Position numbers and translations under genes: made by a program
Source of the DNA: an uncultured Dehalococcoidaceae bacterium
Lineage (GTDB): Bacteria > Chloroflexota > Dehalococcoidia > Dehalococcoidales > RBG-16-60-22
NCBI GenBank assembly: GCA_964545815.1
Contig: CAZJGR010000003.1
Location: 1 to 57,745 of the forward strand
Direction of reading: 5' to 3'
DNA: 57,745 bases
Part shown: positions 4,419-56,407 of the stretch, in pieces
How the letters are laid out: the number at the start of each line of letters is the position of its first letter
How positions within the stretch are numbered: the stretch's first letter is position 1
Notes under the pieces: model-generated
What the model saw: the letters and a program-made list of their open reading frames with translations, nothing else
What the model was told of the DNA's origin: nothing
Database searches by the model: none

Positions 4419-5032
4419 CTTTCGAGCCGCTTTCTCACATAAATGTTTTTGCGTCGGGCAATTTTTTTCTGCAGCATCTGAATGCCATAAATGAGGGCTT
4501 CGGGGCGTGGGGGGCAGCCCGGGACATAGACATCCACCGGAATGATGCGGTTATAGCCCGGCACCACAGCATACGATGCCGAGGCGAAAATGCCGCCGCT
4601 GATGGCGCAGGCGCCCATGGCAATGACCCATTTCGGCTCCGCCATCTGGTGGTAGATGCGCCTCACGTTCGGTGCCATCTTCCAGGTGAGGGTGCCGGCG
4701 GTAATCATCAGGTCAGCCTGACGGGGCGAGGCGCGCATTATTTCCATGCCGAACCGTGCCAGGTCGAAACGTGGCCCGTTGGCGGCAATGAGCTCAAAGG
4801 CACAGCAGGCCGGGAAGCAGATGGCCGGCCAGAGCGAGGAGCGCCGCCCCCAGTTAATCAGCGCATCTACCGTGGTCAGCAGGATATTCTGCTCCAGCTC
4901 CTCATCAAGCCACTGGTCAGGGTCAGGAATCGGTTCCTGGCTATCTGCTTTCAGGCTTTCGATAACCTGACCCTCTTCCCGGTCCAGCTCGATATCGGAA
5001 TAAATGTATTTCCCGGCGGGCTTTATTTCCAT
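4415..5032 (-). CDS. nuoB: NADH-quinone oxidoreductase subunit B (with acidic N-terminal extension)
   Basis: [15 protein letters not shown]...[10 protein letters not shown]...[14 protein letters not shown] are the NuoB/PSST cluster N2 motifs. The first ~50 aa (..[32 protein letters not shown]) are an extra acidic segment. Confidence 0.9.
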
Positions 5033-5394
5033 TCCAGAGCCTTCTTTTTCCAGGCGTAAACGTAGCCAACCAGTATAATGGCCACCAGAATCAATATCGC
5101 GATAAAGCTGGCGCTGCCCAGTGCTCGCAGGTGGACTGCCCAGGGGTACAGGAAGACCACCAGGACATCAAGGGCCAGAAATATCAGGGCATAGAAGTAG
5201 TAATGGAAGTTGAACTGGACCCAGGTCTTGCCGATGGTCTCCATGCCGCATTCAAAGGTGGAGTTCTTGATGGGATTGGGATTATGAGGAACGATTTTAA
5301 GGAACCTGAGGGCGATGGGGATGATTACCATGAAAAGGGTGAATAGAACCGCGGCAATGACGAACAGCCCAATTGAGCCATAATTTGCGAGCAA
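5023..5394 (-). CDS. nuoA: NADH-quinone oxidoreductase subunit A
   Basis: 123 aa with 3 TM segments. ..[43 protein letters not shown] is the NuoA/ND3 signature. TTG start with a GGTGAGG RBS. Confidence 0.9.
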
Positions 5395-5427
5395 CTACCT
5401 GCCTCACCAAGTAAAATTTATGTTCGT

Positions 5428-5457
5428 AGTATATCATACTCGTTTTTTCCAAGGCAA
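5428..5457 (-). promoter_or_regulatory. candidate sigma70-like promoter for the nuo operon
   Basis: On the reverse strand: TTGCCT (5457-5452), an 18-nt spacer, then TATACT (5433-5428), about 35 nt upstream of the nuoA start. This is a consensus match only. Confidence 0.35.
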
Positions 5458-5486
5458 GTTATTTCCAGAAGCGGCTCTTTTCCAGT

Positions 5487-5744
5487 TTAACTGCGGAAGA
5501 TTAACAGGAAGACGGCGGCAATGGAGCTGATGAAGGAGGCAATACCGGTAACGACGAAGACCTTCACCAGGATATTTCTGACCATCTCCAGTGTCTCGTA
5601 GGGCCAGTGGAGTTGCTCAATATAGGCGTTAAACCAGCCCTCCCCGATCATAAAGACAATGATGGTCAGGAAAGCGGAGATGAAGAAGATGTAAAGTGCC
5701 ACTTTAAGACTGGTATTCCCGGTGTCTTTAGCCTCGTTTGCCAT
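5487..5744 (-). CDS. small membrane protein (2 predicted TM helices), unknown function
   Basis: 85-aa ORF with two long hydrophobic stretches (LKVALYIFFISAFLTIIVFMI; VKVFVVTGIASFISSIAAVFLLIF). No family recognised. Confidence 0.55.
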   Translation of the reverse strand: MANEAKDTGNTSLKVALYIFFISAFLTIIVFMIGEGWFNAYIEQLHWPYETLEMVRNILVKVFVVTGIASFISSIAAVFLLIFRS

Positions 5745-5862
5745 ATCACGTCACCTGATGAATGATGAAAGAGGTAAAGGAAGTATAAAACGGGTTTTGT
5801 GCAATGTCAACATTAAACGAATAAAACAGGTAGTTCTGGTAAGTGTTAGCCTCTGGTTTCCA

Positions 5863-5892
5863 TTGACATCGCCTTCGCTCCTTTTGTAAACT
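5863..5892 (+). promoter_or_regulatory. candidate promoter for tldD-pmbA
   Basis: TTGACA (5863-5868), an 18-nt spacer, then TAAACT (5887-5892), about 55 nt upstream of the tldD ATG. Confidence 0.35.
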
Positions 5893-5945
5893 GACTTCGT
5901 CCAAGCATTGAACTGTTACTATTTTTAGTCCGGAGCGATACCATC

Positions 5946-7319
5946 ATGACATTGGAAAACGTGGCTCAGGAACTGGCCGAATTGCTCAGGCGTGGCCAAG
6001 CTGATTATATTGAAGCCCATCTTGAAGAGAGCCAGACCAGCCACATCATGTATCGGGGAAGGGAACTGGAGTCGGTCGGCAGGGCGGAAGCGGTCGGCGG
6101 CAACGTACGGGCAATGGTCAAGGGGGGCTGGGGCTTTGTCAGCTTCAACAGTCTGGATGATATGCGGGGCCGGGTTGAGATGGCCATCAGCCAGGCCAGG
6201 CTGGTCGGCAGTGAGACCAGCCAGCTCACCGCGGTGCCGCCTGTGGTTGACCGGGTGCCGGCGGGGGTGGATAGAGACCCCGTGGCCATGCCACTGGCCG
6301 AAAAAAAACAGATACTGGACGAGTACAATGAGATTATCTGGCGGCAGCCCGAGATACGGACTTCTAACATTGGCTACGGTGATAGCCGCCGGAAGACCAT
6401 TTTCCTGAATTCATTGGGCAGCTATATTGACCAGGAAAGGGCGGACATTGCCCTGCGCATCGCGGCCGTTGCCGCTCGAGATGGCGATGTCCAGCAGGCG
6501 GGGCTGAGCATGGGCAGTCGTGGAGACCTGGCTCCAATCCGACAGCTCCACCAGGAGGTGGAGCACCTGTCGCGCCACGTCGTGGCGCTGCTCTCAGCAC
6601 CACAGGCCAGGGGTGGGGAGTACACGGTGGTCCTTGACCCGGTGCTGGCCGGTGTCTTTGTCCATGAAGCCTTCGGCCACCTGTCTGAGTCAGATTTCGT
6701 CTACGAAAACGAGCGCCTGCGTGAGCTTATGGCGCTGGGTAAACAGTTCGGCAGCCGAGAGCTCAATATCGTGGATACGGCCACGCTGCCCGGACTTCGT
6801 GGCAGCTATAAATACGATGATGAAGGCGTTCCCGCCGGCAAGACATATCTCATCAGGGAAGGCAAACTGGTGGGTAGACTGCACTCAAGGGAGACGGCGG
6901 CCAAAATGAAGGAGAAACCAACCGGCAATGCCCGCGCCATAAGCTACCGCTTCCCTCCCATCGTCCGCATGACCAATACCTATATTGAGCCGGGAATAGT
7001 TTCGTTTGAGGACATGGTCGGTGACATCAAAGAGGGAATCTATGCCAGGAACTGGTACGGGGGCACCACGAGCATGGAGATGTTCACCTTTTCCGCCGGC
7101 GAGGCCTATATGATACGCAATGGCAAAATCGCTGAGGCGCTGCGCCCCGTGGTGCTGACCGGCAACGTGTTCGAAACACTCCGGAACATCGATGCCATTG
7201 GCAATGACCTTGAGATGAACCAGGGAGGCGGCTGTGGCAAGGCCGGGCAGATGCCACTGCCGGTGGCCAATGGCAGCCCCCATATCCGGCTCCGCCGCTG
7301 CCTGGTGGGAGGCAAATAA
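5946..7319 (+). CDS. tldD: TldD family metalloprotease
   Basis: 457 aa. The HEAFGHLSE zinc motif (HExxxH) and the C-terminal GGGCGKAGQ..PV..G.P are typical of TldD. Confidence 0.9.
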   Translation: MTLENVAQELAELLRRGQADYIEAHLEESQTSHIMYRGRELESVGRAEAVGGNVRAMVKGGWGFVSFNSLDDMRGRVEMAISQARLVGSETSQLTAVPPVVDRVPAGVDRDPVAMPLAEKKQILDEYNEIIWRQPEIRTSNIGYGDSRRKTIFLNSLGSYIDQERADIALRIAAVAARDGDVQQAGLSMGSRGDLAPIRQLHQEVEHLSRHVVALLSAPQARGGEYTVVLDPVLAGVFVHEAFGHLSESDFVYENERLRELMALGKQFGSRELNIVDTATLPGLRGSYKYDDEGVPAGKTYLIREGKLVGRLHSRETAAKMKEKPTGNARAISYRFPPIVRMTNTYIEPGIVSFEDMVGDIKEGIYARNWYGGTTSMEMFTFSAGEAYMIRNGKIAEALRPVVLTGNVFETLRNIDAIGNDLEMNQGGGCGKAGQMPLPVANGSPHIRLRRCLVGGK

Positions 7320-9502: not shown

Positions 9503-10042
9503 ATGCTGGGCACCAAGGTCAGACTGCGTGGGAAGAAACTAACCGACGCCCGCAACGATTACCGGTGGCAGACTAACCCGGAGCTGGTCCAACTTGACGC
9601 CATGCCCCCGCTGAATGTCAGTTTCCCCCGGTATCTGCTGGACTACGTGGCGGTGCTGCGCGACCCTTCCCCGAAGCGCCGGACCTTCGCCATAGAGACC
9701 CTTGACGGCAGGCACATCGGAAACTGCGTGTATTACAACATTGACCAGGTAAAGGGGGAGGTGGAGCTGGGGGTTATGATTGGCGACCGTAAATACTGGG
9801 ACCGGGGCTATGGCACTGACGCCGTGGCCACGCTTGTGGCTTATATATTCCGGGAGACCGGTCTCCAGCGTGTCCACCTCAAGACTCTGGACTGGAACGA
9901 GCGGGCACAGCGGTGCTTCCTCAAATGCGGCTTCACCCCCTGCGCGGAACTGGTGAAGAACGGGCATCATTTTGTGCTCATGGAGATGAAGAGAGATTGT
10001 TGGCCGAAAGGACAGGAGCAGATTAAGGGGGCCGGATTTTGA
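9503..10042 (+). CDS. GNAT family N-acetyltransferase (RimJ/RimL-like)
   Basis: 179 aa. ..LGVMIGDRKYWDRGYGTDAVATLVAYIFRETGLQRVHLKTLDWNERAQRCFLKCGF.. is the GNAT motif A/B region. Confidence 0.8.
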   Translation: MLGTKVRLRGKKLTDARNDYRWQTNPELVQLDAMPPLNVSFPRYLLDYVAVLRDPSPKRRTFAIETLDGRHIGNCVYYNIDQVKGEVELGVMIGDRKYWDRGYGTDAVATLVAYIFRETGLQRVHLKTLDWNERAQRCFLKCGFTPCAELVKNGHHFVLMEMKRDCWPKGQEQIKGAGF

Positions 10043-11076
10043 AAACGATTTATACTTCGCCGATAGACTGGCTGGGCGACCGTGTGTGCATCCTTGACCA
10101 GAGCCGACTGCCCGGCGCAGAGATATATCTGGAGCTGGGAGACTACCGGGAGGTTGCTTCAGCCATCGCAGAATTGAAAATAAGGGGTGCCCCGGCCATC
10201 GGAATAGCTGGAGCTTATGGAATCGCCCTGGGGGCGTTGAAAATTGAATCTGAGAAAGAGGGCGAATTTCGGAGAAAGCTGGCTCAGGTGATAGCCACCA
10301 TCGCCGCCACCCGCCCCACCGCACGCAATCTCTTCTGGGCCATTCAGCGCCTGCGGAAAGTGGCTGAGGCTGGCGATGATGTAAGCAGGCTAAAATCGGC
10401 GCTGGTTGACGAGGCGGTGAAAATACATGCCGAAGAGGCCGAGGCGACGCGGAAGCTGAGCCAGTTCGGGGCTGAGCTCATCCGGGATGGGGATACCGTT
10501 CTGGTGCACTGCAATGCCGGCCCGCTGGCCACCGCCGGGTACGGCACGGCGCTGGGCATAATTTTATTGGCCAGAGAGCAGGGGAAAAAGACTAAAGTGA
10601 TAGCTACCGAGACGCGCCCCGTGCTGCAGGGGGCAAGGCTTACCGCCTGGGAGCTCAGGAAAGCCGGCGTTCCGGTAACTCTCATTGCCGACTCTGCGGC
10701 GGGCTATTTTATGAAGCGGGGTGAAATCGACTGTGTTATCGTTGGGGCTGACCGCATTGCCGTCAACGGGGACACGGCCAACAAAATCGGCACCTATACC
10801 CTGGCGGTGCTGGCGAAGGAAAACAGCGTTCCGTTTTACGTTGCCGCCCCCACCTCCACCATAGACCCCACCCTCGCCTCCGGGGGGGAAATCCCCATTG
10901 AGCAGAGAAAGCCAGAGGAGATAACTCATATTCAGGGCCTGCGCATTGCGCCGGAAGGCGTTGCGGTTCTGAATCCCGCCTTTGACGTTACTCCCCATAA
11001 ATACATCACCGCCATCATCACCGAGAGGGGTATAATAAAAGAGCCGTATGGGGAGGGGATAAAGAGGATAATCTAA
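10039..11076 (+). CDS. mtnA: S-methyl-5-thioribose-1-phosphate isomerase (eIF-2B alpha/beta/delta family)
   Basis: 345 aa. ..ILDQSRLP..E...IRGAPAIGIAGAYG..TRPTARNLFWA..HCNAG.LAT.GYGTALG...ETRP.LQGARLTAWEL..GADRIA.NGDTANKIGTY is a full-length MtnA pattern. The TTG start overlaps the GNAT stop. Confidence 0.9.
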   Translation: MKTIYTSPIDWLGDRVCILDQSRLPGAEIYLELGDYREVASAIAELKIRGAPAIGIAGAYGIALGALKIESEKEGEFRRKLAQVIATIAATRPTARNLFWAIQRLRKVAEAGDDVSRLKSALVDEAVKIHAEEAEATRKLSQFGAELIRDGDTVLVHCNAGPLATAGYGTALGIILLAREQGKKTKVIATETRPVLQGARLTAWELRKAGVPVTLIADSAAGYFMKRGEIDCVIVGADRIAVNGDTANKIGTYTLAVLAKENSVPFYVAAPTSTIDPTLASGGEIPIEQRKPEEITHIQGLRIAPEGVAVLNPAFDVTPHKYITAIITERGIIKEPYGEGIKRII

Positions 11077-12896
11077 TGGCTACTGGAGAAATCGTCTTAG
11101 CGACTGATGGTGAAATAGCAATCAAAGTAGGCCCTTGGGCTAGGGAAAAAATACTTTATATAAGAAACCTTTGTGAGATATTTAACACTGGAATGAAAAA
11201 TAGATGGCCGGTGAGAACTTATATAGACTTATTTGCAGGTCCAGGAGTTTGTGTTATTGAGAGAAAAAAAGAAGGAAAAACGGGAGAGGAGATTTTGGGG
11301 TCACCCTTGGTAGCCTTAAGTTGTAAGACACCTTTTACACATTACTTTTTCAATGATGTTAGACAGGAATTCATTAATGCACTGAGAGTTAGAGCAACTT
11401 CTTACGGATTTCCTAATTTGGAATACTATACTCAGGATTGTAATTCAATAATAGATAACCTTTTACTGAAGTTACCACGTAATTCACTTGATTTTTGTTT
11501 TATTGACCCGCTTAATTGGGAAATCAAGTTTGAAACTATTCGTAGACTTACCAAGAATCGGAAAATGGATCTCGCTATTACTTTCCATATAGGTAATATA
11601 AAGAGGTCCGCTGCAAATCCAACTCAGGAATTAATTGATTTTTTCCCTGATTCTAGTTGGCATCAGGAATATTTAAATGCTAGGGAGGGGGGTAAACCTA
11701 CTGGGCGCTTATTACTAGATGCTTATGAACAAGGTTTGAGGGATATAGGGTATAGCTTTATAAGAGATGGTGTACTCGAAAAAAATAATAGAAATGTTCC
11801 GATTTATCATCTTATATTTGCTAGTAGACACCCTAGGGGATCAGACTTTTGGGATAAAGTAACCGAGCGGCAGGCAACAGGTCAGATAAGAATGTCTATT
11901 CCTGTCGGCGGAGTAATTTGTCAGCCAGCCAAAAGTAAGTCTAACTCAACAATTGTGAAAAGCATATATTTAATGTTGAACGGTAATAGAAGCTCAATAG
12001 TTCAGCAAGTTGGAGACGGTTCAATAATTACCCGTTTTGATAGAACCCCTCTTCCCACTAAAGATACTGATATAGTATGTCCCCATTTTCTTGAGCTGAA
12101 ATGGGCATATGGGTGTCCTTTTGACTGTGCTTGGTGCTATCTAAAGGGGACTTTCAGATTTCACCCAACTAAAACAAAGCCAGTATTTAAAGATTTAAGT
12201 AAAATAGAATTACACACCAGAGCGTTTCTTGAAGAAGTGGAAAAGCCTGAAATCCTAAACACAGGGGAGATAGCAGACTCCTTAATGGGAGAAAGCTTGA
12301 ACACTCCATTTTCTAAATTCATTATTCCTATGTTTGAAAAACAAAATAAGCATAAAGTTCTGTTTTTAACAAAATCCGATAATATAAAAAACCTATTAGA
12401 AATAAGTCCGCATAATCAAGTTATTGTGAGCTTTAGTCTTAACGCTAACGAGGTGGCGAAGAAATGGGAAAGCGGCGCTCCTTCTGTGGATAGGAGAATT
12501 GAGGCTAGTAGAAAGCTTAATGAAGCTGGTTATGAAGTGAGGGTGAGAATTGACCCAATGGTGCCAGTTCCAGAGTGGGAGAAACTCTATTTGGAGCTTG
12601 CGGAAAAGATATTTTCTAGCTTTGTTCCTTCTAGGATTACTCTGGGTTCACTCAGAGGATTACAAACTACCATTAATGGCAGCACAGATAAGAGTTGGCT
12701 GCAGTATTTAAAGGAGAATTCCAATTGGGGAAAGAAGATAGATTTCAGTATCCGTCGCAATATGTATGCCACTCTTATTAGCTTCCTAAAGGAAAATTAT
12801 AATTATACTGACATCGGACTTTGTAAAGAAACAGTGGAGATGTGGAGAAGTCTTGGTATGGATTATAGAAAGATTAAATGTAATTGTATCTGGTAA
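11076..12896 (+). CDS. fusion protein: N-terminal TcmP-like (three-Cys-motif partner, methyltransferase-fold) domain plus C-terminal SplB/COG1533-like radical-SAM domain
   Basis: 606-aa ORF of markedly low GC.
N-terminal domain (aa 1 to about 265):
- GPWAREKILYI.. N-terminus
- DLFAGPG (aa 51-57, SAM motif-I-like)
- FIDPLNW (aa 142-148, degenerate DPPY/RlmJ-like motif IV)
- HLIFASRHPRG
Together these match my memory of the 'three-Cys-motif partner protein TcmP' family.
C-terminal domain (aa about 336-606):
- YGCPFDCAWCYLKG, i.e. CX3CX2C at C347/C351/C354 (nt 12114-12137)
- LFLTKS, VSFSL, E.GAPS...R..A...L.EAGYEV.VRIDPMVP, which is the pattern of SplB-like 'DNA photolyase' radical-SAM proteins
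The ATG overlaps the mtnA stop by 1 nt. Confidence 0.85.
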   Translation: MATGEIVLATDGEIAIKVGPWAREKILYIRNLCEIFNTGMKNRWPVRTYIDLFAGPGVCVIERKKEGKTGEEILGSPLVALSCKTPFTHYFFNDVRQEFINALRVRATSYGFPNLEYYTQDCNSIIDNLLLKLPRNSLDFCFIDPLNWEIKFETIRRLTKNRKMDLAITFHIGNIKRSAANPTQELIDFFPDSSWHQEYLNAREGGKPTGRLLLDAYEQGLRDIGYSFIRDGVLEKNNRNVPIYHLIFASRHPRGSDFWDKVTERQATGQIRMSIPVGGVICQPAKSKSNSTIVKSIYLMLNGNRSSIVQQVGDGSIITRFDRTPLPTKDTDIVCPHFLELKWAYGCPFDCAWCYLKGTFRFHPTKTKPVFKDLSKIELHTRAFLEEVEKPEILNTGEIADSLMGESLNTPFSKFIIPMFEKQNKHKVLFLTKSDNIKNLLEISPHNQVIVSFSLNANEVAKKWESGAPSVDRRIEASRKLNEAGYEVRVRIDPMVPVPEWEKLYLELAEKIFSSFVPSRITLGSLRGLQTTINGSTDKSWLQYLKENSNWGKKIDFSIRRNMYATLISFLKENYNYTDIGLCKETVEMWRSLGMDYRKIKCNCIW

Positions 12897-12907: not shown

Positions 12908-13777
12908 ATGCCACAGGCGAAGATAGCGGTTATCGGCGGGAGCGGGCTGTATGATATCGAGGGGATGAAAGACGTTGAGGAAGTTGACATAAACACGCCC
13001 TTTGGCAGGCCGAGTGATAAAATCGTGGTGGGGAAGCTGGAGGGGGTGGGGGTCGCCTTCCTGCCCCGGCACGGGCGGGGGCACCGCCTCCTGCCCACCG
13101 AGGTACCCTATCGGGCCAATATCTACGCCCTGAAGTCGCTGGGGGTGGAGAGGCTCATCGGCATAAACTCGGTGGGGAGCCTGAAAGAGGAGTTCCAGCC
13201 CAACGACCTTTTGATTCCTGACCAGCTTATCGACCGCACCAGGGGGAGAACCAGCACCTTTTTCGGCGAGGGCATCGTCGCCCATGTCCCCTTCGGCGAG
13301 CCGTTCTGCCCGTCTTTGAGCCAGCTGGTCTATCAGGCGGCCAAGGATGCCGGCGCCACCGCGCACCGGGGCGGCACCTATGTGGTCATGGAGGGGCCGG
13401 CCTTCTCCACCAAGGCGGAGTCCTTACTTTACCGTTCCTGGGGGGCGGACGTCATCGGCATGACGGCGCTGCCCGAGGCCAAGCTGGCGAGAGAGGCCGA
13501 GATATGCTACGCTATTATTGCCTGCGTCACCGATTACGACTGCTGGCGCCGGGGCCATGACGCTGTTACCGCCGAGATGATTATCAGTCGCCTGCGCCAG
13601 AACATTGAGGCCGCCAAGCGAATCATCAAGCTGGTGGTGCCTAAGGTTCCGCGGAAACGCGATTGCGACTGTGCCACGGCGTTGAGCACGGCGCTGGTGA
13701 CCGCTCCCGATGTTATGCCTGAAGCGCAGAAGAAAAAGCTCGACCTGTTAATTGGCAGGTACCTGAGAAAGGGTTAA
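12908..13777 (+). CDS. mtnP: S-methyl-5'-thioadenosine phosphorylase
   Basis: MPQAKIAVIGGSGLY...TPFG.PS......G..VAFLPRHGRGHR..P.EV.YRANI.ALK.LGV...I..N.VGSL......P.D..IPDQ.IDRT is a classical MTAP. I prefer the ATG at 12908 (AAGGAGG RBS at 12894-12900) over the track start at 12884, which lies inside the preceding gene. Confidence 0.92.
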   Translation: MPQAKIAVIGGSGLYDIEGMKDVEEVDINTPFGRPSDKIVVGKLEGVGVAFLPRHGRGHRLLPTEVPYRANIYALKSLGVERLIGINSVGSLKEEFQPNDLLIPDQLIDRTRGRTSTFFGEGIVAHVPFGEPFCPSLSQLVYQAAKDAGATAHRGGTYVVMEGPAFSTKAESLLYRSWGADVIGMTALPEAKLAREAEICYAIIACVTDYDCWRRGHDAVTAEMIISRLRQNIEAAKRIIKLVVPKVPRKRDCDCATALSTALVTAPDVMPEAQKKKLDLLIGRYLRKG

Positions 13778-13781
13778 CCAT

Positions 13782-14816
13782 ATGTCTGGAGTGGAGTTCA
13801 ACTGTTGGCCCACGGTTATCGGCAGCATGCCCCATACCGACCCTGCCGTGGCCTGCTCGCAGATTGCGCATTACCTCAAGGATATTCCTGCCTGGCCGCA
13901 GCTGCCCCGGCGCTCTTTCCTGGAAAACATGTATGTCCAGTACAGCCAGGGGTTCCCCGGGGTGGTGGTCAACGAAGCTGAGAAAAAAATCAACGTGAAT
14001 CGTCATCAGGACCTGACCCAACCTCTGGAGCAGCTCTACTCGGCTTTTCTGGGAAATAAGGTGGATGAACTTGCCATCAGTGTGGACTATGCCGCCGGCC
14101 TGTACCGATTTTTGGCGCTGGATAACCTGTCGCCGAGGGCGGTAAAAGGGCACGTCACCGGACCGGTAACCTGGGGGCTTACCGTGGTCGATGAGGAGGG
14201 CAAGGGTGTCCTCTACGATGACACTCTGGGCGATGCTGTGCCCAAGCTGCTGCAGCTGAAAGCGGCCTGGCAGGAGAGAGAGCTGAAGAAGTTGTGCCGC
14301 CGCACCATCATCTTCGTCGATGAGCCTTATATGTCGGCCTTCGGCTCGGTCTCCGTGATGCTTTCCCGGGAGAAGGTGGTCAGCCTGCTGAACGAGGTAT
14401 TCGGCGGCATTGAGGGGCTCAAGGGCGTCCACTGCTGCGGCAACACCGACTGGTCGGTGATACTGGGCAGCAACGTCGATATCATCAGCTTTGACGCTTA
14501 TAACTATGCCCGGTCCCTGAGCCTGTACCCCGAAGCGGTGAAGAAGTTCCTTGACCGGGGTGGCACCGTTGCCTGGGGGATTGTCCCCAATGAGGCCGGA
14601 GCCCTGAACCGTGAATCCGCGGCCAGCCTCAAGGACCGACTTGGAGAAGCGATGGCGCCCTTTACCCGAAAAGGTGTCCCTTTCCGGCAGTTGGTAGCGC
14701 AGGGGCTGCTGACGCCGAGCTGTGGGCTGGCTTCTCTCGCTACAGAGGAGGCGGCAGCGAGCGCTCTGGGACTGCTCACCGGGCTATCGGACCAAATCAG
14801 AAAACGATATGTATAA
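13782..14816 (+). CDS. MetE-like (cobalamin-independent methionine synthase C-terminal-domain family) methyltransferase, short 'core-MetE'-type
   Basis: 344 aa. PTVIGSMPHTD (compare the MetE TTIGSFPQT motif), GVHCCGN (the H-x-C zinc ligands) and TPSCGLASL (the MetE PDCGLK Cys ligand). The length corresponds to a single MetE catalytic barrel. Confidence 0.75.
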   Translation: MSGVEFNCWPTVIGSMPHTDPAVACSQIAHYLKDIPAWPQLPRRSFLENMYVQYSQGFPGVVVNEAEKKINVNRHQDLTQPLEQLYSAFLGNKVDELAISVDYAAGLYRFLALDNLSPRAVKGHVTGPVTWGLTVVDEEGKGVLYDDTLGDAVPKLLQLKAAWQERELKKLCRRTIIFVDEPYMSAFGSVSVMLSREKVVSLLNEVFGGIEGLKGVHCCGNTDWSVILGSNVDIISFDAYNYARSLSLYPEAVKKFLDRGGTVAWGIVPNEAGALNRESAASLKDRLGEAMAPFTRKGVPFRQLVAQGLLTPSCGLASLATEEAAASALGLLTGLSDQIRKRYV

Positions 14817-19970: not shown

Positions 19971-20052
19971 AATACACCATTTAAATGTGGGAAATAATAA
20001 GGGAATAAAAATTCACACCGTGGGCTAATAATACACGGTAACGTGTACGAAG

Positions 20053-20313
20053 TCAAGAGCCGGCCAGGCTATTTTTTGGCGCAGATGCGGTATATTTGAA
20101 TTTAGACTGCTCGGCGATGATGGAGAGGAGCGTTGTGGAGGCGCCGCGTGGCTGGTACATGCCGGTCTCCCATTCGCTGATGGTTTGCTGGCGGGTTCCC
20201 AGCCGCTCCGCAAGCTCACGCTGGGTGAGCCCCATATGTCGGCGCAAAGCCTGGATATGCTGGCGGTCCCAGTTTTTCTTTTGGGCTTCATACGGTTTAG
20301 CCATCGTGCTCAT
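20053..20313 (-). CDS. XRE-family helix-turn-helix transcriptional regulator
   Basis: ..IQALRRHMGLTQRELAERLGTRQQTISEWETGMYQPRGASTTLLSIIAE.. is a classic HTH_3 domain. The start is uncertain (TTG 20361, ATG 20352, 20313 or 20304). Confidence 0.8.
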   Translation of the reverse strand: MSTMAKPYEAQKKNWDRQHIQALRRHMGLTQRELAERLGTRQQTISEWETGMYQPRGASTTLLSIIAEQSKFKYTASAPKNSLAGS

Positions 20314-20474
20314 CTTACACGATTCAGTGTAGGCTGTCAAAAGGCCGACCATGGTGGGCAATAGATAAATTCAGAAAAATAAAGAAATATGGAAATTATT
20401 GAAGGAAAAGGGCAAAAATAATATATAAATGGCTGGCAATTGTGCTAATAGACAAAATATGGTAATCTATGGTG

Positions 20475-20504
20475 TTGATGAGAGCATCGCATTGCTGCTA
20501 TTAT
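20475..20504 (+). promoter_or_regulatory. candidate groESL promoter
   Basis: TTGATG (20475-20480), an 18-nt spacer, then TATTAT (20499-20504). The CIRCE operator begins 5 nt downstream, the usual arrangement. Confidence 0.4.
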
Positions 20505-20508
20505 ATCT

Positions 20509-20535
20509 TTAGCACTCTCACCACGAGAGTGCTAA
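20509..20535 (+). promoter_or_regulatory. CIRCE operator (HrcA binding site)
   Basis: TTAGCACTC-tcaccacga-GAGTGCTAA is a perfect match to the CIRCE consensus TTAGCACTC-N9-GAGTGCTAA, 48 nt upstream of groES. Confidence 0.95.
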
Positions 20536-20582
20536 ATAATGAAAAATCAATCATCGTTTAATTTCTAATAAGGAGGACAGGA

Positions 20583-20879
20583 ATGGCAATCAAGTTGCAG
20601 CCACTGGCGGACCGACTGGTGGTAAAACCAATTGAAGCGGAGGGAAAAACCAAGACCGGCATTTACCTGCCGGATACGGCCAAGGAAAAACCGCAGGAAG
20701 GTAAAGTAGTCGCCGTTGGCCCCGGCCGGCTATCCGATGATGGCAAGCGCATTGCCATGGAGGTCAAGGTTGGTGACATCGTAGTCTATGCCAAATATGG
20801 CGGCACCGAAATCAAGCTCGATGATGAGGAGTATATGATTCTGCGCGAGAGCGATATTCTGGCCAAGAAGGGCAAGTAA
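20583..20879 (+). CDS. groES: co-chaperonin GroES
   Basis: 98 aa. [45 protein letters not shown]... AGGAGG RBS. Confidence 0.97.
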
Positions 20880-22532
<1,653 letters not shown>

Positions 22533-54763: not shown

Positions 54764-55444
54764 TTATTCTTTAGGCTCTTTCCGGAGGGTCAGCAGGGCA
54801 TCCTCCTTAGCCAGTTCAATGTGCTCACGCATTGTTTTCTCACACAGTTCCGGGTCTTTTAAATGCAGGGCCAGCAGTATCTTCTGGTGGCCATCAAGCG
54901 TTCTCTGCGCACCTTCAATGGATTGCAGGGTTACTTTGCGGTGCCGCAGCACCTGTTTTCTCATATCAACAATCAGTCGATAAAGGCGTATCTTATCCGA
55001 AACGAGCTCATGAAGATGGTCGTGGAAGTTGGTGTTCCATTTGAAGACATCACCCATCCGGCGTGCTTCCAGCGCCGCCTGCGCCTTATCAATGAATGTG
55101 CCCAGCTGATGAAGGCTCTCTTTGGTGATTCTTTCCGAGATGATTCTGAGGGCGTATCCTTCCAGAATGGCGCGGAGTTCAAAGAGCTCTGCCATTTCCT
55201 CCCTTGAATCTCCGGAGACAATGAAGCCCCTGGTCTCCAGAGGGCGAATCAGGCCTTCCGACTCGAGCTTATAGAGTGCCTCTCGCACCGGAGTGCGGCT
55301 TACCCCCAGCGTTTCCGCCAGGTGCTCTTCGGTCAGCCTTTCCTCTGGCCCCAGCTGGCCGGAAAGAATCGCCGTCTTCAGATGCTCGTAAACTCTTTTC
55401 CGAACCGGGACATTTCTCTTTTCAACGCGACTACTTACGGCCAT
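54764..55444 (-). CDS. GntR family transcriptional regulator (FadR/FCD subfamily)
   Basis: ..VYEHLKTAILSGQLGPEERLTEEHLAETLGVSRTPVREALYKLESEGLI.. is the winged HTH, followed by a helical FCD-type C-terminal domain. I prefer the ATG at 55444 over the track start at 55528. Confidence 0.88.
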   Translation of the reverse strand: MAVSSRVEKRNVPVRKRVYEHLKTAILSGQLGPEERLTEEHLAETLGVSRTPVREALYKLESEGLIRPLETRGFIVSGDSREEMAELFELRAILEGYALRIISERITKESLHQLGTFIDKAQAALEARRMGDVFKWNTNFHDHLHELVSDKIRLYRLIVDMRKQVLRHRKVTLQSIEGAQRTLDGHQKILLALHLKDPELCEKTMREHIELAKEDALLTLRKEPKE

Positions 55445-55452
55445 TTCACGGT

Positions 55453-55466
55453 AATTGTATACAATT
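55453..55466. promoter_or_regulatory. candidate GntR operator 1 (perfect 14-bp palindrome)
   Basis: AATTGTATACAATT lies 9 nt upstream of the gntR ATG. It has the GT-N-AC core typical of GntR/FadR operators. Confidence 0.45.
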
Positions 55467-55517
55467 AGGCGATAATTTGTCAATAAGTTTGCTAAATTAC
55501 CGTTGCAATATATTATT

Positions 55518-55529
55518 ATTGTATACATT
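55518..55529. promoter_or_regulatory. candidate GntR operator 2 (imperfect copy)
   Basis: ATTGTATACATT shares the TGTATACA palindromic core with operator 1, about 60 nt further upstream. Confidence 0.35.
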
Positions 55530-55777
55530 CCTTGGCGCTAAACGTAGAAGATTCAAAAAGTGGCCGGGAAGATAAATTATTTTGGCTGGGACACCTCTCG
55601 TACCTGTCGGCCATCAGTTCTCACTTGACAGTGGCGGCATGGTTTAGATAACATACCTTCAAAAGGCCATGAGAGAATTATTTCTCGCTCTTTATTTGAG
55701 GTCTTTTAATAGCCCCCGCTTGAAGCTCGGTCTGAGCTCCTTTATTTCCCGTAGCGTTAATTGCAGGAGAAGGTATA

Positions 55778-56407
55778 TTGTTTAAGTTTTCCTTATTGCC
55801 CAGAGGTAAAATATTTTTTGAGCTTTTCCAGGAAAGTGCCGTCAACATGGTCGAGACCGCTGAACTCATGAAGGACATGGTCGACCACTGGGAGAAGCTT
55901 GAGCATAACGTGGCGCAGATAGAAGAATGTGAGCATAAAGGCGACAATACCACACATCGGATTATTGAGCTATTGCACCGCTCTTTTGTGACGCCATTTG
56001 ACCAGGAGGACATGGCGCTTTTAGCCCATTCCCTTGATGACATCGTGGACTTGATTCACGCCGCCGCCGTGGCGATGTTTATTTACAAAATAGACACTCC
56101 TAAAGAGGGCGCCAAAGACCTGGCCGATATCATCGTGTCCGCTTCAAAAGAGGTGGCAGTGGCCTTAGGGCAGCTGCCCCCTCGTCCCAAACTGACACAG
56201 GTTTTGAAGCACTGCATCGAGATTAATCGACTGGAAAATGCGGCGGACAGTGTCTTTCGTAGCGCCATGGCGGAACTATTCGATAATTGCACCAATACGG
56301 CCGATATCATAAAATGGCGCGAGATTCTGGAGCATATGGAGAGCGCGACCGACCGGTGTGAGGATGTGGCCAATGTCCTGGAAGGGGTAGCGCTCAAGCA
56401 TGCCTGA
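55778..56407 (+). CDS. DUF47 (PhoU-like) phosphate-transport accessory protein
   Basis: 209 aa with a TTG start after GGAGAAGG. ..FFELFQESAVNMVETAELMKDMV.... and ..E.ADR.ED.AN.LE.. give the DUF47 pattern. Paired with the PiT transporter. Confidence 0.82.
   Translation: MFKFSLLPRGKIFFELFQESAVNMVETAELMKDMVDHWEKLEHNVAQIEECEHKGDNTTHRIIELLHRSFVTPFDQEDMALLAHSLDDIVDLIHAAAVAMFIYKIDTPKEGAKDLADIIVSASKEVAVALGQLPPRPKLTQVLKHCIEINRLENAADSVFRSAMAELFDNCTNTADIIKWREILEHMESATDRCEDVANVLEGVALKHA

Follow-up and report, generated by a model that had tools for sequence, protein, structure and literature searches.

We analyzed a 57,745-nucleotide stretch of contig CAZJGR010000003.1 from an uncultured Dehalococcoidaceae bacterium (this whole stretch is called the window here), in which one AT-rich gene lies between mtnA and mtnP. 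Its product joins a TcmP domain to a radical S-adenosylmethionine (SAM) domain (rSAM) related to spore photoproduct lyase (SPL), and on sequence and structural comparison this cassette is best classed as a partner-swapped, here fused, variant of a catalogued but uncharacterized candidate system. From its anatomy, its family membership, its distribution over an insertion hotspot, the exchange of its TcmP module between loci and its association with restriction-modification (R-M) enzymes, we infer a substrate, a chemistry and a role in defense: with a probability of about one-half in our estimate, it is an accessory, probably defense-linked, DNA-targeting radical enzyme, in which TcmP would provide the targeting and the SPL-like half would abstract hydrogen from a base by radical chemistry.

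A compositionally foreign gene between mtnA and mtnP

The cassette consists of a single open reading frame (ORF) that is tightly joined to both flanking genes (labels beginning with L and P denote related loci and homologous proteins):

10039 to 11076, + strand: mtnA (S-methyl-5-thioribose-1-phosphate isomerase), upstream flank, GC content 0.576; TIGR00512, 433 bits
11074 to 11078, + strand: 5′ junction TAATG, the mtnA stop overlapping the cassette start, read from the sequence; L083 is arranged likewise
11076 to 12896, + strand: whole cassette, TcmP and SPL-like radical-SAM fusion, single ORF, 606 amino acids (aa), GC 0.374, GC at third codon positions (GC3) 0.318; homologs P0002 to P0005
12894 to 12910, + strand: 3′ junction with the cassette TAA, the host ribosome-binding site (RBS) GGAGG and the mtnP ATG (12908); architecture kept in more than 30 loci
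12908 to 13777, + strand: mtnP (S-methyl-5′-thioadenosine phosphorylase), downstream flank, GC 0.611; TIGR01694, 337 bits

The cassette TAA (12894 to 12896) is followed directly by GGAGGTCTCTC and then by the mtnP ATG at 12908. Since the RBS AAGGAGGTCTCT is also present at the empty mtnA-mtnP junction of a relative (L002), we regard the mtnP RBS as owned by the host. A first-pass annotation of this DNA, made from the letters alone, had described a single-ORF insert with the same TAATG overlap and TAA position, and all three points are correct when checked against the sequence. It had also called the gene foreign in composition from hand counts of GC per 60 nucleotides (24, 21 and 15 inside, 38 and 45 outside). 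All five counts are exact, and the GC, GC3 and tetranucleotide scans are each atypical over the gene: GC is 0.374 compared to 0.560 for the remainder of the window, the two 1-kb bins from 11 to 13 kb have z scores of −6.0 and −5.3 against all others, GC3 amounts to 0.318 compared to 0.66 to 0.79 in ten neighboring genes, and in tetranucleotide composition the window deviates most in the 1821-nt frame that covers the gene (0.67 compared to a median of 0.22).

Up to about 5 kb on either side, the genes are of housekeeping type by Pfam and NCBIfam (TldD/PmbA-like, PAC2, GNAT, mtnA, mtnP and an NTPase). As the first-pass annotation had it, neither tRNAs nor terminal repeats mark the insert: the 57-kb window contains no tRNA gene, and direct or inverted repeats flanking the cassette are limited to short matches at chance level. 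Promoter-like and terminator-like matches internal to the cassette likewise show no excess over chance. Integrase and transposase domains are absent from the called genes of the syntenic locus L083; in the window no search was aimed at them. Genes for type IIG enzymes, DUF5131 and DUF3800 gave no tblastn match in the window, which has no ORF longer than 732 aa, and the cassette is therefore a solo one here.

The N-terminal half is a TcmP domain with an RlmJ-like fold

The features of the N-terminal half, with the linker that follows it, are these:

11136 to 11870, + strand: TcmP domain, aa 21 to 265, Rossmann methyltransferase-like, RlmJ-like fold; TIGR04474, PDC-M41A, Foldseek
11226 to 11246, + strand: SAM-binding motif I DLFAGPG, aa 51 to 57; conservation complete at L52, F53 and G55 and at least 90% at D51 and G57
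11436 to 11444, + strand: DCN, aa 121 to 123, invariant in the alignment of relatives; putative position of methyltransferase motif III
11499 to 11519, + strand: motif-IV-like FIDPLNW, aa 142 to 148; only D144 and P145 invariant
11871 to 11999, + strand: variable linker, aa 266 to 308, of low confidence in the model; model and alignment

The first-pass annotation had assigned this half to TcmP, and it does score above the curated cutoff of TIGR04474 (139.2 bits compared to 53, E 2e-40), with aa 21 to 265 covering profile positions 2 to 261 of 263. Among the PADLOC models it matches PDC-M41A (E 7e-16) and PDC-M30A (E 6e-5), both partially. The AlphaFold model, computed with 28 full-length relatives as input, has a mean pLDDT of 77.7 and about 90 across the N-terminal domain. 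In Foldseek searches this half is closest to RlmJ (6qdx, 7p9i and 4blu), the proteins found being Escherichia coli RlmJ and the DUF519 protein LPL1258 (E ~5e-7, TM ~0.5); Trm1 and Hen1 are the next matches and, like RlmJ, RNA methyltransferases. The RlmJ-type resemblance proposed before is thus supported by structure (RlmJ, E 5e-7). The similarity is at the level of the fold only, as the PDB search gave no sequence-profile link from TcmP to RlmJ and Pfam gave no match to the RlmJ family. Against predicted viral structures (BFVD), Foldseek returned generic methyltransferase matches only.

The SAM-binding motif of the TcmP module is apparently intact, to judge from its conserved residues, and the acidic residue that ends strand 2 of the fold is conserved among relatives. 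The aromatic position of the DPPY motif is not conserved, and a clade of ~630-aa relatives reads DPTGL there. The linker region is the place where split relatives have the TcmP stop and the rSAM start, and at the corresponding place relatives of 705 aa carry a GMT-like winged helix-turn-helix (wHTH) domain between the two parts. We considered this GMT-wHTH domain (PF22560) as a tie to Gamma-Mobile-Trio elements and rejected it, as the components reported in the GMT paper are two recombinases and an StbA-like protein, and neither TcmP nor a methyltransferase is among them.

The C-terminal half is an SPL-like radical-SAM domain with seven invariant cysteines

The C-terminal half comprises the following features:

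12000 to 12893, + strand: SPL-like radical-SAM domain, aa 309 to 606, with the conserved N-terminal extension V..GDGSIITRFD..P; PF20903, SPL in the PDB, Foldseek
12078 to 12089, + strand: CPHF (C335), first extra invariant cysteine; alignments
12114 to 12137, + strand: CX3CX2C motif CPFDCAWC (C347, C351, C354), followed by invariant Y355-L356; aligns with SPL CMGHCHYCYL
12264 to 12281, + strand: GEIADS loop, aa 397 to 402, opposite the SPL loop with the H-atom donor Cys140, without a cysteine; alignments to SPL
12822 to 12833, + strand: CKET (C583), second extra invariant cysteine; alignments
12879 to 12887, + strand: CNC (C602, C604), third and fourth extra invariant cysteines, three residues from the C terminus; alignments

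The SplB-like radical-SAM assignment made in the first pass agrees with three kinds of search. The Pfam SPL family PF20903 matches aa 343 to 515 with 66 bits (threshold 27), over profile positions 83 to 253 of 338 only; SPL of Geobacillus in the PDB is found at E 1e-11 with the single sequence and 8e-15 with a profile; and Foldseek returns the SPL structures 4rh0 and 4fhc (E 7e-8). With the general radical-SAM model PF04055, the window protein reaches 25.7 bits compared to a threshold of 29.5, and close relatives reach 28.6 to 30.6. The residue equivalent to Y98 of SPL (in CYL) is conserved, and LTKS and VSFSL lie at aa 431 to 434 and 451 to 455; like DLFAGPG, FIDPLNW and C347/C351/C354, both stand where they had been placed before.

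We rejected a bona fide SplB identity. The score is far below the cutoffs of the SplB equivalog models (79.2 compared to 400 bits for TIGR04070 and 47.6 compared to 437 for TIGR03886), and the H-donor loop (C140/C141 in SPL, after β2) aligns to NTGEIADS, with no cysteine under either alignment and with none of the family's invariant cysteines falling within it.

Conservation of the cysteine triad had been named in the first pass as a test of this assignment, and C347, C351 and C354 are invariant in the 28 fused relatives as well as in 38 distant standalone relatives. Moreover, all seven cysteines are retained in distant standalone relatives at 30 to 40% identity and define this radical-SAM subfamily. 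The pattern suggests that C335, C583, C602 and C604 are a candidate second metal or Fe-S site.

The mtnA-mtnP junction is an old insertion hotspot

The closest relative found, the Dehalococcoidales metagenome-assembled genome L083, has mtnA and mtnP genes 87% identical to those of the window and the same synteny (TldD/PmbA, PAC2, GNAT, mtnA ... mtnP, 344-aa gene). At its junction the cassette is present as two genes, for a TcmP of 270 aa and an rSAM of 335 aa, with a GC content of 0.37 compared to 0.53 to 0.57 for the flanks. Independent fused variants lie exactly between mtnA and mtnP as well, such as P0003 (597 aa) and P0090 (708 aa, with wHTH). Among 97 related loci, 32 have mtnA and mtnP on both sides, about 25 have one flank visible and 19 have neither. 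The cassette occupies this junction with the same tight 3′ architecture in more than 40 loci, the flanks of which, after divergence, share 60 to 87% identity, and in more than 30 loci the 3′ junction reads ...C-N-C-[IV]-W, stop, (A)AGGAGG, 6 to 8 nt and the mtnP ATG. In nearly every locus the cassette is richer in AT than its flanks.

The first-pass annotation had expected empty sites in related genomes, and presence/absence polymorphism is indeed found at this junction. It was examined in species-representative genomes with a more distant mtnA. Of these, L005, L013, L048 and L052 have empty junctions; that of L002 is a cassette-free 237-nt spacer (L002:6018-6256) with four GC-rich stem-loops, possibly REP-like or terminator-like. 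At the junction of L001, a low-GC DUF3800 gene stands alone instead (L001:6068-6826), and those of L004 and L020 hold genes of host GC content. The junctions of L002 and L001 contain no cassette remnants, the mtnP RBS being the sole shared element. Beside the cassette, some junctions also contain further cargo, namely type IIG R-M enzymes, a ParE-type toxin (L100:8148-8411), an NYN-domain protein (L135:6941-7567) and small HicAB-like ORFs (L150:6969-8304).

Because the same site and architecture recur across diverged loci, we regard the junction as an old intra-operon insertion hotspot rather than a recent private acquisition; the earlier picture of a gene privately spliced into this operon gives way to a long-occupied and shared one. 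The identity of the rSAM part partly follows that of the flanks (Spearman ρ 0.60, p 1e-5), and that of TcmP does not (ρ 0.05). Judging from these comparisons, the cargo is maintained and exchanged, the exchange probably running through homologous recombination via the conserved flanks. Related cassettes in other lineages sit apart from the mtn genes. The Dehalococcoidales junction offers a clean case of an intra-operon hotspot that gathers AT-rich, defense-type cargo without a recognizable mobility gene.

Fused and split forms share a conserved rSAM part and an exchangeable TcmP part

A search of 5.8 billion proteins gave 852 relatives of the window protein; for the rSAM half, a library of 1.84 billion representatives yielded 967 relatives with a threshold of E ≤ 1e-10, 173 of them reaching E ≤ 1e-30. 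The full-length homologs P0002 to P0005 are 57 to 67% identical over 100% coverage. The family takes four forms:

596 to 606 aa: TcmP-rSAM, the type of the window and of P0002 to P0005
~630 aa: TcmP-rSAM, a large clade with an extra N-terminal Cys-rich extension
~705 aa: TcmP-wHTH-rSAM, with the GMT-like wHTH domain
~335 aa: standalone rSAM of the split form

The extension of the 630-aa clade (e.g., P0006 to P0062) reads C-x2-C ... C ... C, is zinc-ribbon-like and is absent from the window protein and its 600-aa relatives.

The first-pass annotation had taken two adjacent genes to be the norm and the single polypeptide to be the exception, which does not hold: fusions account for about 100 of the top 120 protein clusters, and the 80 loci with an intact rSAM ORF divide into 34 with a fusion and 46 with two overlapping genes, so that the fused state has recurred within a two-component system and is not a singular event. 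In split relatives (e.g., L083:8001-8019), the TcmP stop overlaps the rSAM start by ~19 nt in different frames. As this overlap recurs in many distinct loci, the split form represents two genuine genes and not a sequencing error, and the arrangement may serve translational coupling. In plasmid and phage collections from cultured organisms, matches were confined to standalone TcmP and genuine SplB, and none was a full-length fusion.

Between loci, the two parts behave differently. In 97 locus pairs with rSAM parts at least 85% identical, the median identity of TcmP is 30%; L170 and L173, for example, share 93% in rSAM and 20% in TcmP. Such low TcmP identity next to near-identical rSAM indicates that TcmP is exchanged around a conserved catalytic partner. 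By analogy, this resembles the exchange of specificity modules in R-M systems, and the natural TcmP swaps look like changes of specificity.

Type IIG enzymes and DNA methyltransferases are recurrent neighbors

The first-pass annotation had proposed a survey for association with R-M and defense genes, and such an association exists. In 62 loci, enough upstream sequence was visible to evaluate the upstream neighbor, and in 24 of these (~18 distinct cassettes) the gene immediately upstream, on the same strand, encodes a type IIG-like enzyme. Such enzymes have domains for a nuclease (PD-(D/E)xK), an N6-adenine methyltransferase (Eco57I/MmeI type) and target specificity (TaqI_C or S type), and they match the PADLOC model REase_MTase_IIG (E 1e-115). 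The gap between the two genes measures 41 nt in L086 to L090 and 0 nt in L182 and L183. The pairing occurs in the Dehalococcoidales hotspot and in unrelated lineages, there inserted among housekeeping genes. Canonical TcmP pairs, in which the partner is DUF5131 (also Gp37/Gp68; PF07505), lie near Abi and MmeI-like genes too: one on a Deinococcus plasmid beside an MmeI-like enzyme and one on a Leisingera plasmid beside two Abi genes.

Phage-like contexts bring further DNA-modifying neighbors. In a phage-like region of L187 (L187:3248-7738), genes for a C5 methyltransferase, a Dam-type methyltransferase and a standalone rSAM (37% identity) overlap in this order, the rSAM gene with the end of the Dam-type one, and a large serine recombinase follows two genes past the rSAM, after a 55-aa ORF. 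Among 13 loci on viral contigs, TcmP adjoins rSAM in three (L174, L177 and L189), an N6/N4 DNA methylase together with a helix-turn-helix protein does so in two, and two have a C5 methyltransferase close by.

Some neighbors were seen in one locus or lineage each. The 635-aa fusion of L081 (L081:7363-11420) and L082 is flanked by conserved genes for proteins of 189 and 470 aa without a Pfam or PADLOC match, which may be additional partners, and HigB/M78, DUF3800 and DEAD-box helicase genes lie in the vicinity. In L103 (L103:468-3053), split tcmP and rSAM genes lie directly downstream of lexA (Peptidase_S24 and LexA DNA-binding domain), a single case hinting at SOS control. In L184 (L184:9932-11923), the fusion is followed by a metallo-β-lactamase-fold gene with an Apyc1-like (anti-Pycsar) Pfam match, and a pyrimidine-dimer DNA glycosylase (Pyr_excise) is encoded two genes further on.

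Comparison with known systems

Two PADLOC candidates contain TcmP: PDC-M41, which pairs it with DUF5131, and PDC-M30, which pairs TcmP-wHTH with DUF5131. A preprint put PDC candidates forward on the ground that genes of this kind lie within BREX, DISARM or type I R-M systems. The DUF5131 proteins match PDC-M41B and PDC-M30B at about E 1e-99 and have a C-x6-C-x2-C motif; we confirmed such pairs in L178 and L179. The first-pass annotation had taken an SPL-like protein to be the usual partner of TcmP; the canonical partner is DUF5131, for which (PF07505) the window protein has no match, and the locus in the window is partner-swapped. The cassette shares with both candidates the A component (TIGR04474 above cutoff and the PDC-M41A match), a partner that is a Cys-motif enzyme of the radical-SAM superfamily, and a vicinity of R-M and Abi genes; some relatives at the mtnA-mtnP junction carry a TcmP-wHTH of the PDC-M30A type. 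It differs in its B component, which is SPL-like with CX3CX2C, ~300 aa and four extra invariant cysteines, compared to a DUF5131 of ~250 aa, and in the fusion of the two parts in the window. The SPL-like half has no PADLOC model, and the TcmP part belongs to catalogued candidates.

The two partner families may be related at a distance. RadicalSAM.org places DUF5131 (Megacluster-5-2) and SPL (5-3) in sibling subgroups. Between them, comparison of a profile with one sequence gave no match, and profile-profile comparison (hhalign) gave a weak match (probability 7%, E 0.005) that is co-linear across the cluster motif, SDSL/SMSDLF and LTKS/LTKR. DUF5131 relatives number at least 8000 candidates at E ≤ 1e-10. 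Literature searches on TcmP, DUF5131, PDC-M41/M30 and radical SAM with type IIG or BREX gave incidental annotations and the candidate preprint only, and a large 2026 survey of BREX contains none of the terms TcmP, DUF5131, PDC-M41/M30 or radical SAM.

Of the characterized proteins, SplB (4fhc, 4rh0) is the best match in sequence and fold for aa 342 to 515, with shared CX3CX2C-Y-L and SAM-binding-type LTKS, SFSLN and RIDP motifs, and by this homology the rSAM half would be a radical enzyme directed at DNA bases. It departs from SplB in its score (79 compared to 400 bits, over profile positions 83 to 253 of 338 only), in lacking the C140-loop cysteine, in the extra CPHF, CKET and CNC cysteines of its family, in being fused to or paired with TcmP, and in occurring in non-sporulating Dehalococcoidales-type genomes and phage-like contigs. 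The second precedent is gp53 of phage M6, an SPL-like radical-SAM isomerase of glycinyl-thymidine within DNA (Lee et al. 2021, PMC8989533). SPL and gp53 (PMC8989533) are the only radical-SAM enzymes known to act on DNA and the only characterized enzymes of the SPL fold, and both act on thymine-derived bases. From its published description, gp53 is similar in using an SPL-fold radical-SAM domain on a modified DNA base in a setting of phage-host conflict, and it is a precedent for this fold installing or converting DNA modifications. Its 5-hydroxymethyldeoxyuridine pathway also includes a kinase, a transferase and a pyridoxal phosphate-dependent decarboxylase, and none of those genes occurs here.

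RlmJ, the 23S rRNA A2030 N6-methyltransferase (DUF519), is the closest solved fold of the TcmP half; both have a Rossmann core that includes motif I, and a D-P pair where motif IV would stand. In contrast to RlmJ, TcmP has no sequence-profile match to that family and no conserved DPPY aromatic residue, and its hypervariability and exchange between loci set it apart from a housekeeping rRNA enzyme. Elp3, in which a radical-SAM domain is fused to an acetyltransferase (GNAT) domain, forms cm5 at U34 of tRNA in a universal housekeeping role. The analogy would lie in a radical-SAM domain and a second, cofactor-binding transferase-fold domain that modify a nucleobase as one polypeptide; here the second domain is Rossmann methyltransferase-like instead of GNAT, and the radical-SAM subgroup is a different one.

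A DNA-targeting radical enzyme as the favored reading

In the reading that we favor, the gene would be an intact accessory cassette drawn from an AT-rich pool of horizontally exchanged genes; it would have lodged in the long-lived mtnA-mtnP hotspot and be read through with the operon there. TcmP would be the exchangeable module that recognizes and presents the nucleic-acid target, probably a flipped DNA base. The radical-SAM module, with its predicted [4Fe-4S]/SAM site and second four-cysteine site, would reductively cleave SAM to a 5′-deoxyadenosyl radical, which would abstract a hydrogen from the target base or its substituent. As a result, a DNA modification would be installed, converted or removed, or foreign DNA would be damaged, with the enzyme acting alone, as would be the case here, or assisting a type IIG R-M enzyme. 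We favor a DNA substrate because SPL and gp53 act on DNA, because the 705-aa variant carries a wHTH domain and because DNA methyltransferases are neighbors in phage-like contigs.

Several observations pull the other way. Solo cassettes make up about 60% of the evaluable loci, and in the window no defense, R-M or mobility gene is adjacent to the cassette. The rSAM half matches none of the PADLOC models, and PDC-M41 and PDC-M30 themselves have candidate status only. Methyl transfer by TcmP is doubtful because motif IV has no conserved aromatic residue, and an RNA substrate retains some probability because the N-terminal half is closest to the rRNA methyltransferase RlmJ. The tight coupling to mtnP and the partial tracking of host phylogeny are unusual for defense cargo and so leave room for a link to the metabolism of SAM or 5′-deoxyadenosine. 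Finally, the locus sample consists of the best 80 matches and is skewed to close relatives, with some redundancy.

More tentatively, TcmP with an SPL-like radical-SAM enzyme may constitute a new class of DNA-acting immunity or epigenetic module based on radical chemistry. TcmP would then select and flip a base, and the radical-SAM part with its second four-cysteine site would convert, remove or destroy that base or its modification; candidate targets are N6-methyladenine made by a partner methyltransferase of type IIG, PglX or DrmMI type, and the thymidine or cytosine hypermodifications of phages. If so, it would bring the radical-SAM chemistries known on DNA to three and be the first that cells employ for R-M-type defense; the very large TcmP/DUF5131 (Gp37/Gp68) family would also gain a function. 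More generally, if the cassette modifies or attacks DNA, it adds a new chemistry to R-M biology. The TcmP/DUF5131 pair is very widespread and listed as a candidate defense system, and the SPL-like variant offers a compact entry point of one or two genes, with type IIG enzymes as natural partners and the CX3CX2C triad, the four-cysteine site and TcmP motif I as mutational targets.

Alternative explanations

The alternative that survives best, though we consider it unlikely, is an RNA-modification enzyme, in which the RlmJ-like module would target rRNA or tRNA and the radical-SAM domain would functionalize a C-H bond of an RNA base. Following the logic of RlmN/Cfr, MiaB or Elp3, it would be a dispensable factor that tunes translation. 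RNA is the usual nucleic-acid substrate of radical-SAM enzymes, most of those known on nucleic acids acting on it, and the best structural matches of the N-terminal half, RlmJ and then Trm1 and Hen1, point the same way, as do two neighborhoods: the cassette adjoins a TrmI-like tRNA methyltransferase gene in L180 and has a CCA-adding enzyme gene nearby in L086. A translation factor would not be expected to combine patchy occurrence among close relatives and foreign composition with recurrent operonic pairing to type IIG R-M enzymes, and the swapping of TcmP between near-identical rSAM genes is hard to square with a fixed target in rRNA or tRNA. In addition, the SPL fold has so far been found with DNA substrates only, and the wHTH insertion and the DNA methyltransferase neighbors in phage-like loci argue for DNA.

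Less probable still is a metabolic partner of methionine and 5′-deoxyadenosine salvage, acting on a metabolite related to SAM, 5′-methylthioadenosine (MTA) or 5′-deoxyadenosine. Radical-SAM enzymes release 5′-deoxyadenosine, which MTA phosphorylases or nucleosidases remove, and in another form of this explanation the enzyme would need MtnP and MtnA to clear this inhibitory by-product, which would account for its placement. The case draws on mtnA and mtnP flanking the cassette together in at least 32 loci (at least one of them in about 57), on the 8 to 13 nt between the cassette stop and the mtnP start in more than 30 loci, on the correlation of rSAM identity with flank identity and on the weak similarity of the gene downstream of mtnP to methionine synthase. 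Yet members outside the clade are never found beside mtn genes (L081, L086, L105 to L108, L180, L182 and L184), many relatives have adjacent mtnA and mtnP genes without a cassette, and unrelated cargo (DUF3800, type IIG, toxin-antitoxin and NYN-domain genes) occupies the same site. Both domains resemble nucleic-acid enzymes, and the gene's GC3, 0.32 where the host has about 0.7, speaks against an integrated housekeeping gene.

We hold DNA repair to be equally improbable, that is, an SPL-like lyase that would directly reverse a thymine adduct, a cross-link or an alkylation, with TcmP recognizing the lesion. By solved structure and by sequence, the C-terminal half has its nearest relative in SPL, the Y98 equivalent is conserved, and SplB-like enzymes have a published link to SOS operons. 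The split relative of L103 lies directly downstream of lexA and the fusion of L184 two genes from a pyrimidine-dimer glycosylase; these two neighbors are, however, single anecdotes. The score far under the SPL equivalog cutoff (79 compared to 400 bits), the H-donor loop without a cysteine, the accessory distribution and the foreign composition speak against repair; pairing with R-M enzymes and a swappable TcmP fit conflict systems better.

A selfish homing-type gene would promote its own insertion by cleaving or marking the empty mtnA-mtnP site. It would fit a single gene of foreign composition that lacks flanking repeats, recurs at one precise site across many genomes and is polymorphic in its presence there. 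We give this explanation very little credence, as the window protein has no nuclease or recombinase domain (Pfam/NCBIfam), unrelated cargo uses the same site, the family occurs at many other sites, and exchange between conserved flanks by homologous recombination is a simpler account of the pattern.

Other features of the window

The gene right after mtnP (13782 to 14816 in the window, 344 aa) keeps its place in L083, L091 and L092. It has no Pfam match and a weak, sub-threshold match to the methionine synthase model PRK00957 (E 2e-6), and it may encode a divergent MetE-like core methionine synthase that would complete an operon for methionine salvage and synthesis. Milder GC dips occur elsewhere in the window, at 5001 to 6000 (0.467), 20001 to 21000 (0.479) and 55001 to 56000 (0.478), compared to about 0.56; the first of these spans a stretch of ~900 nt between an ORF that ends at 5032 and one that starts at 5946.

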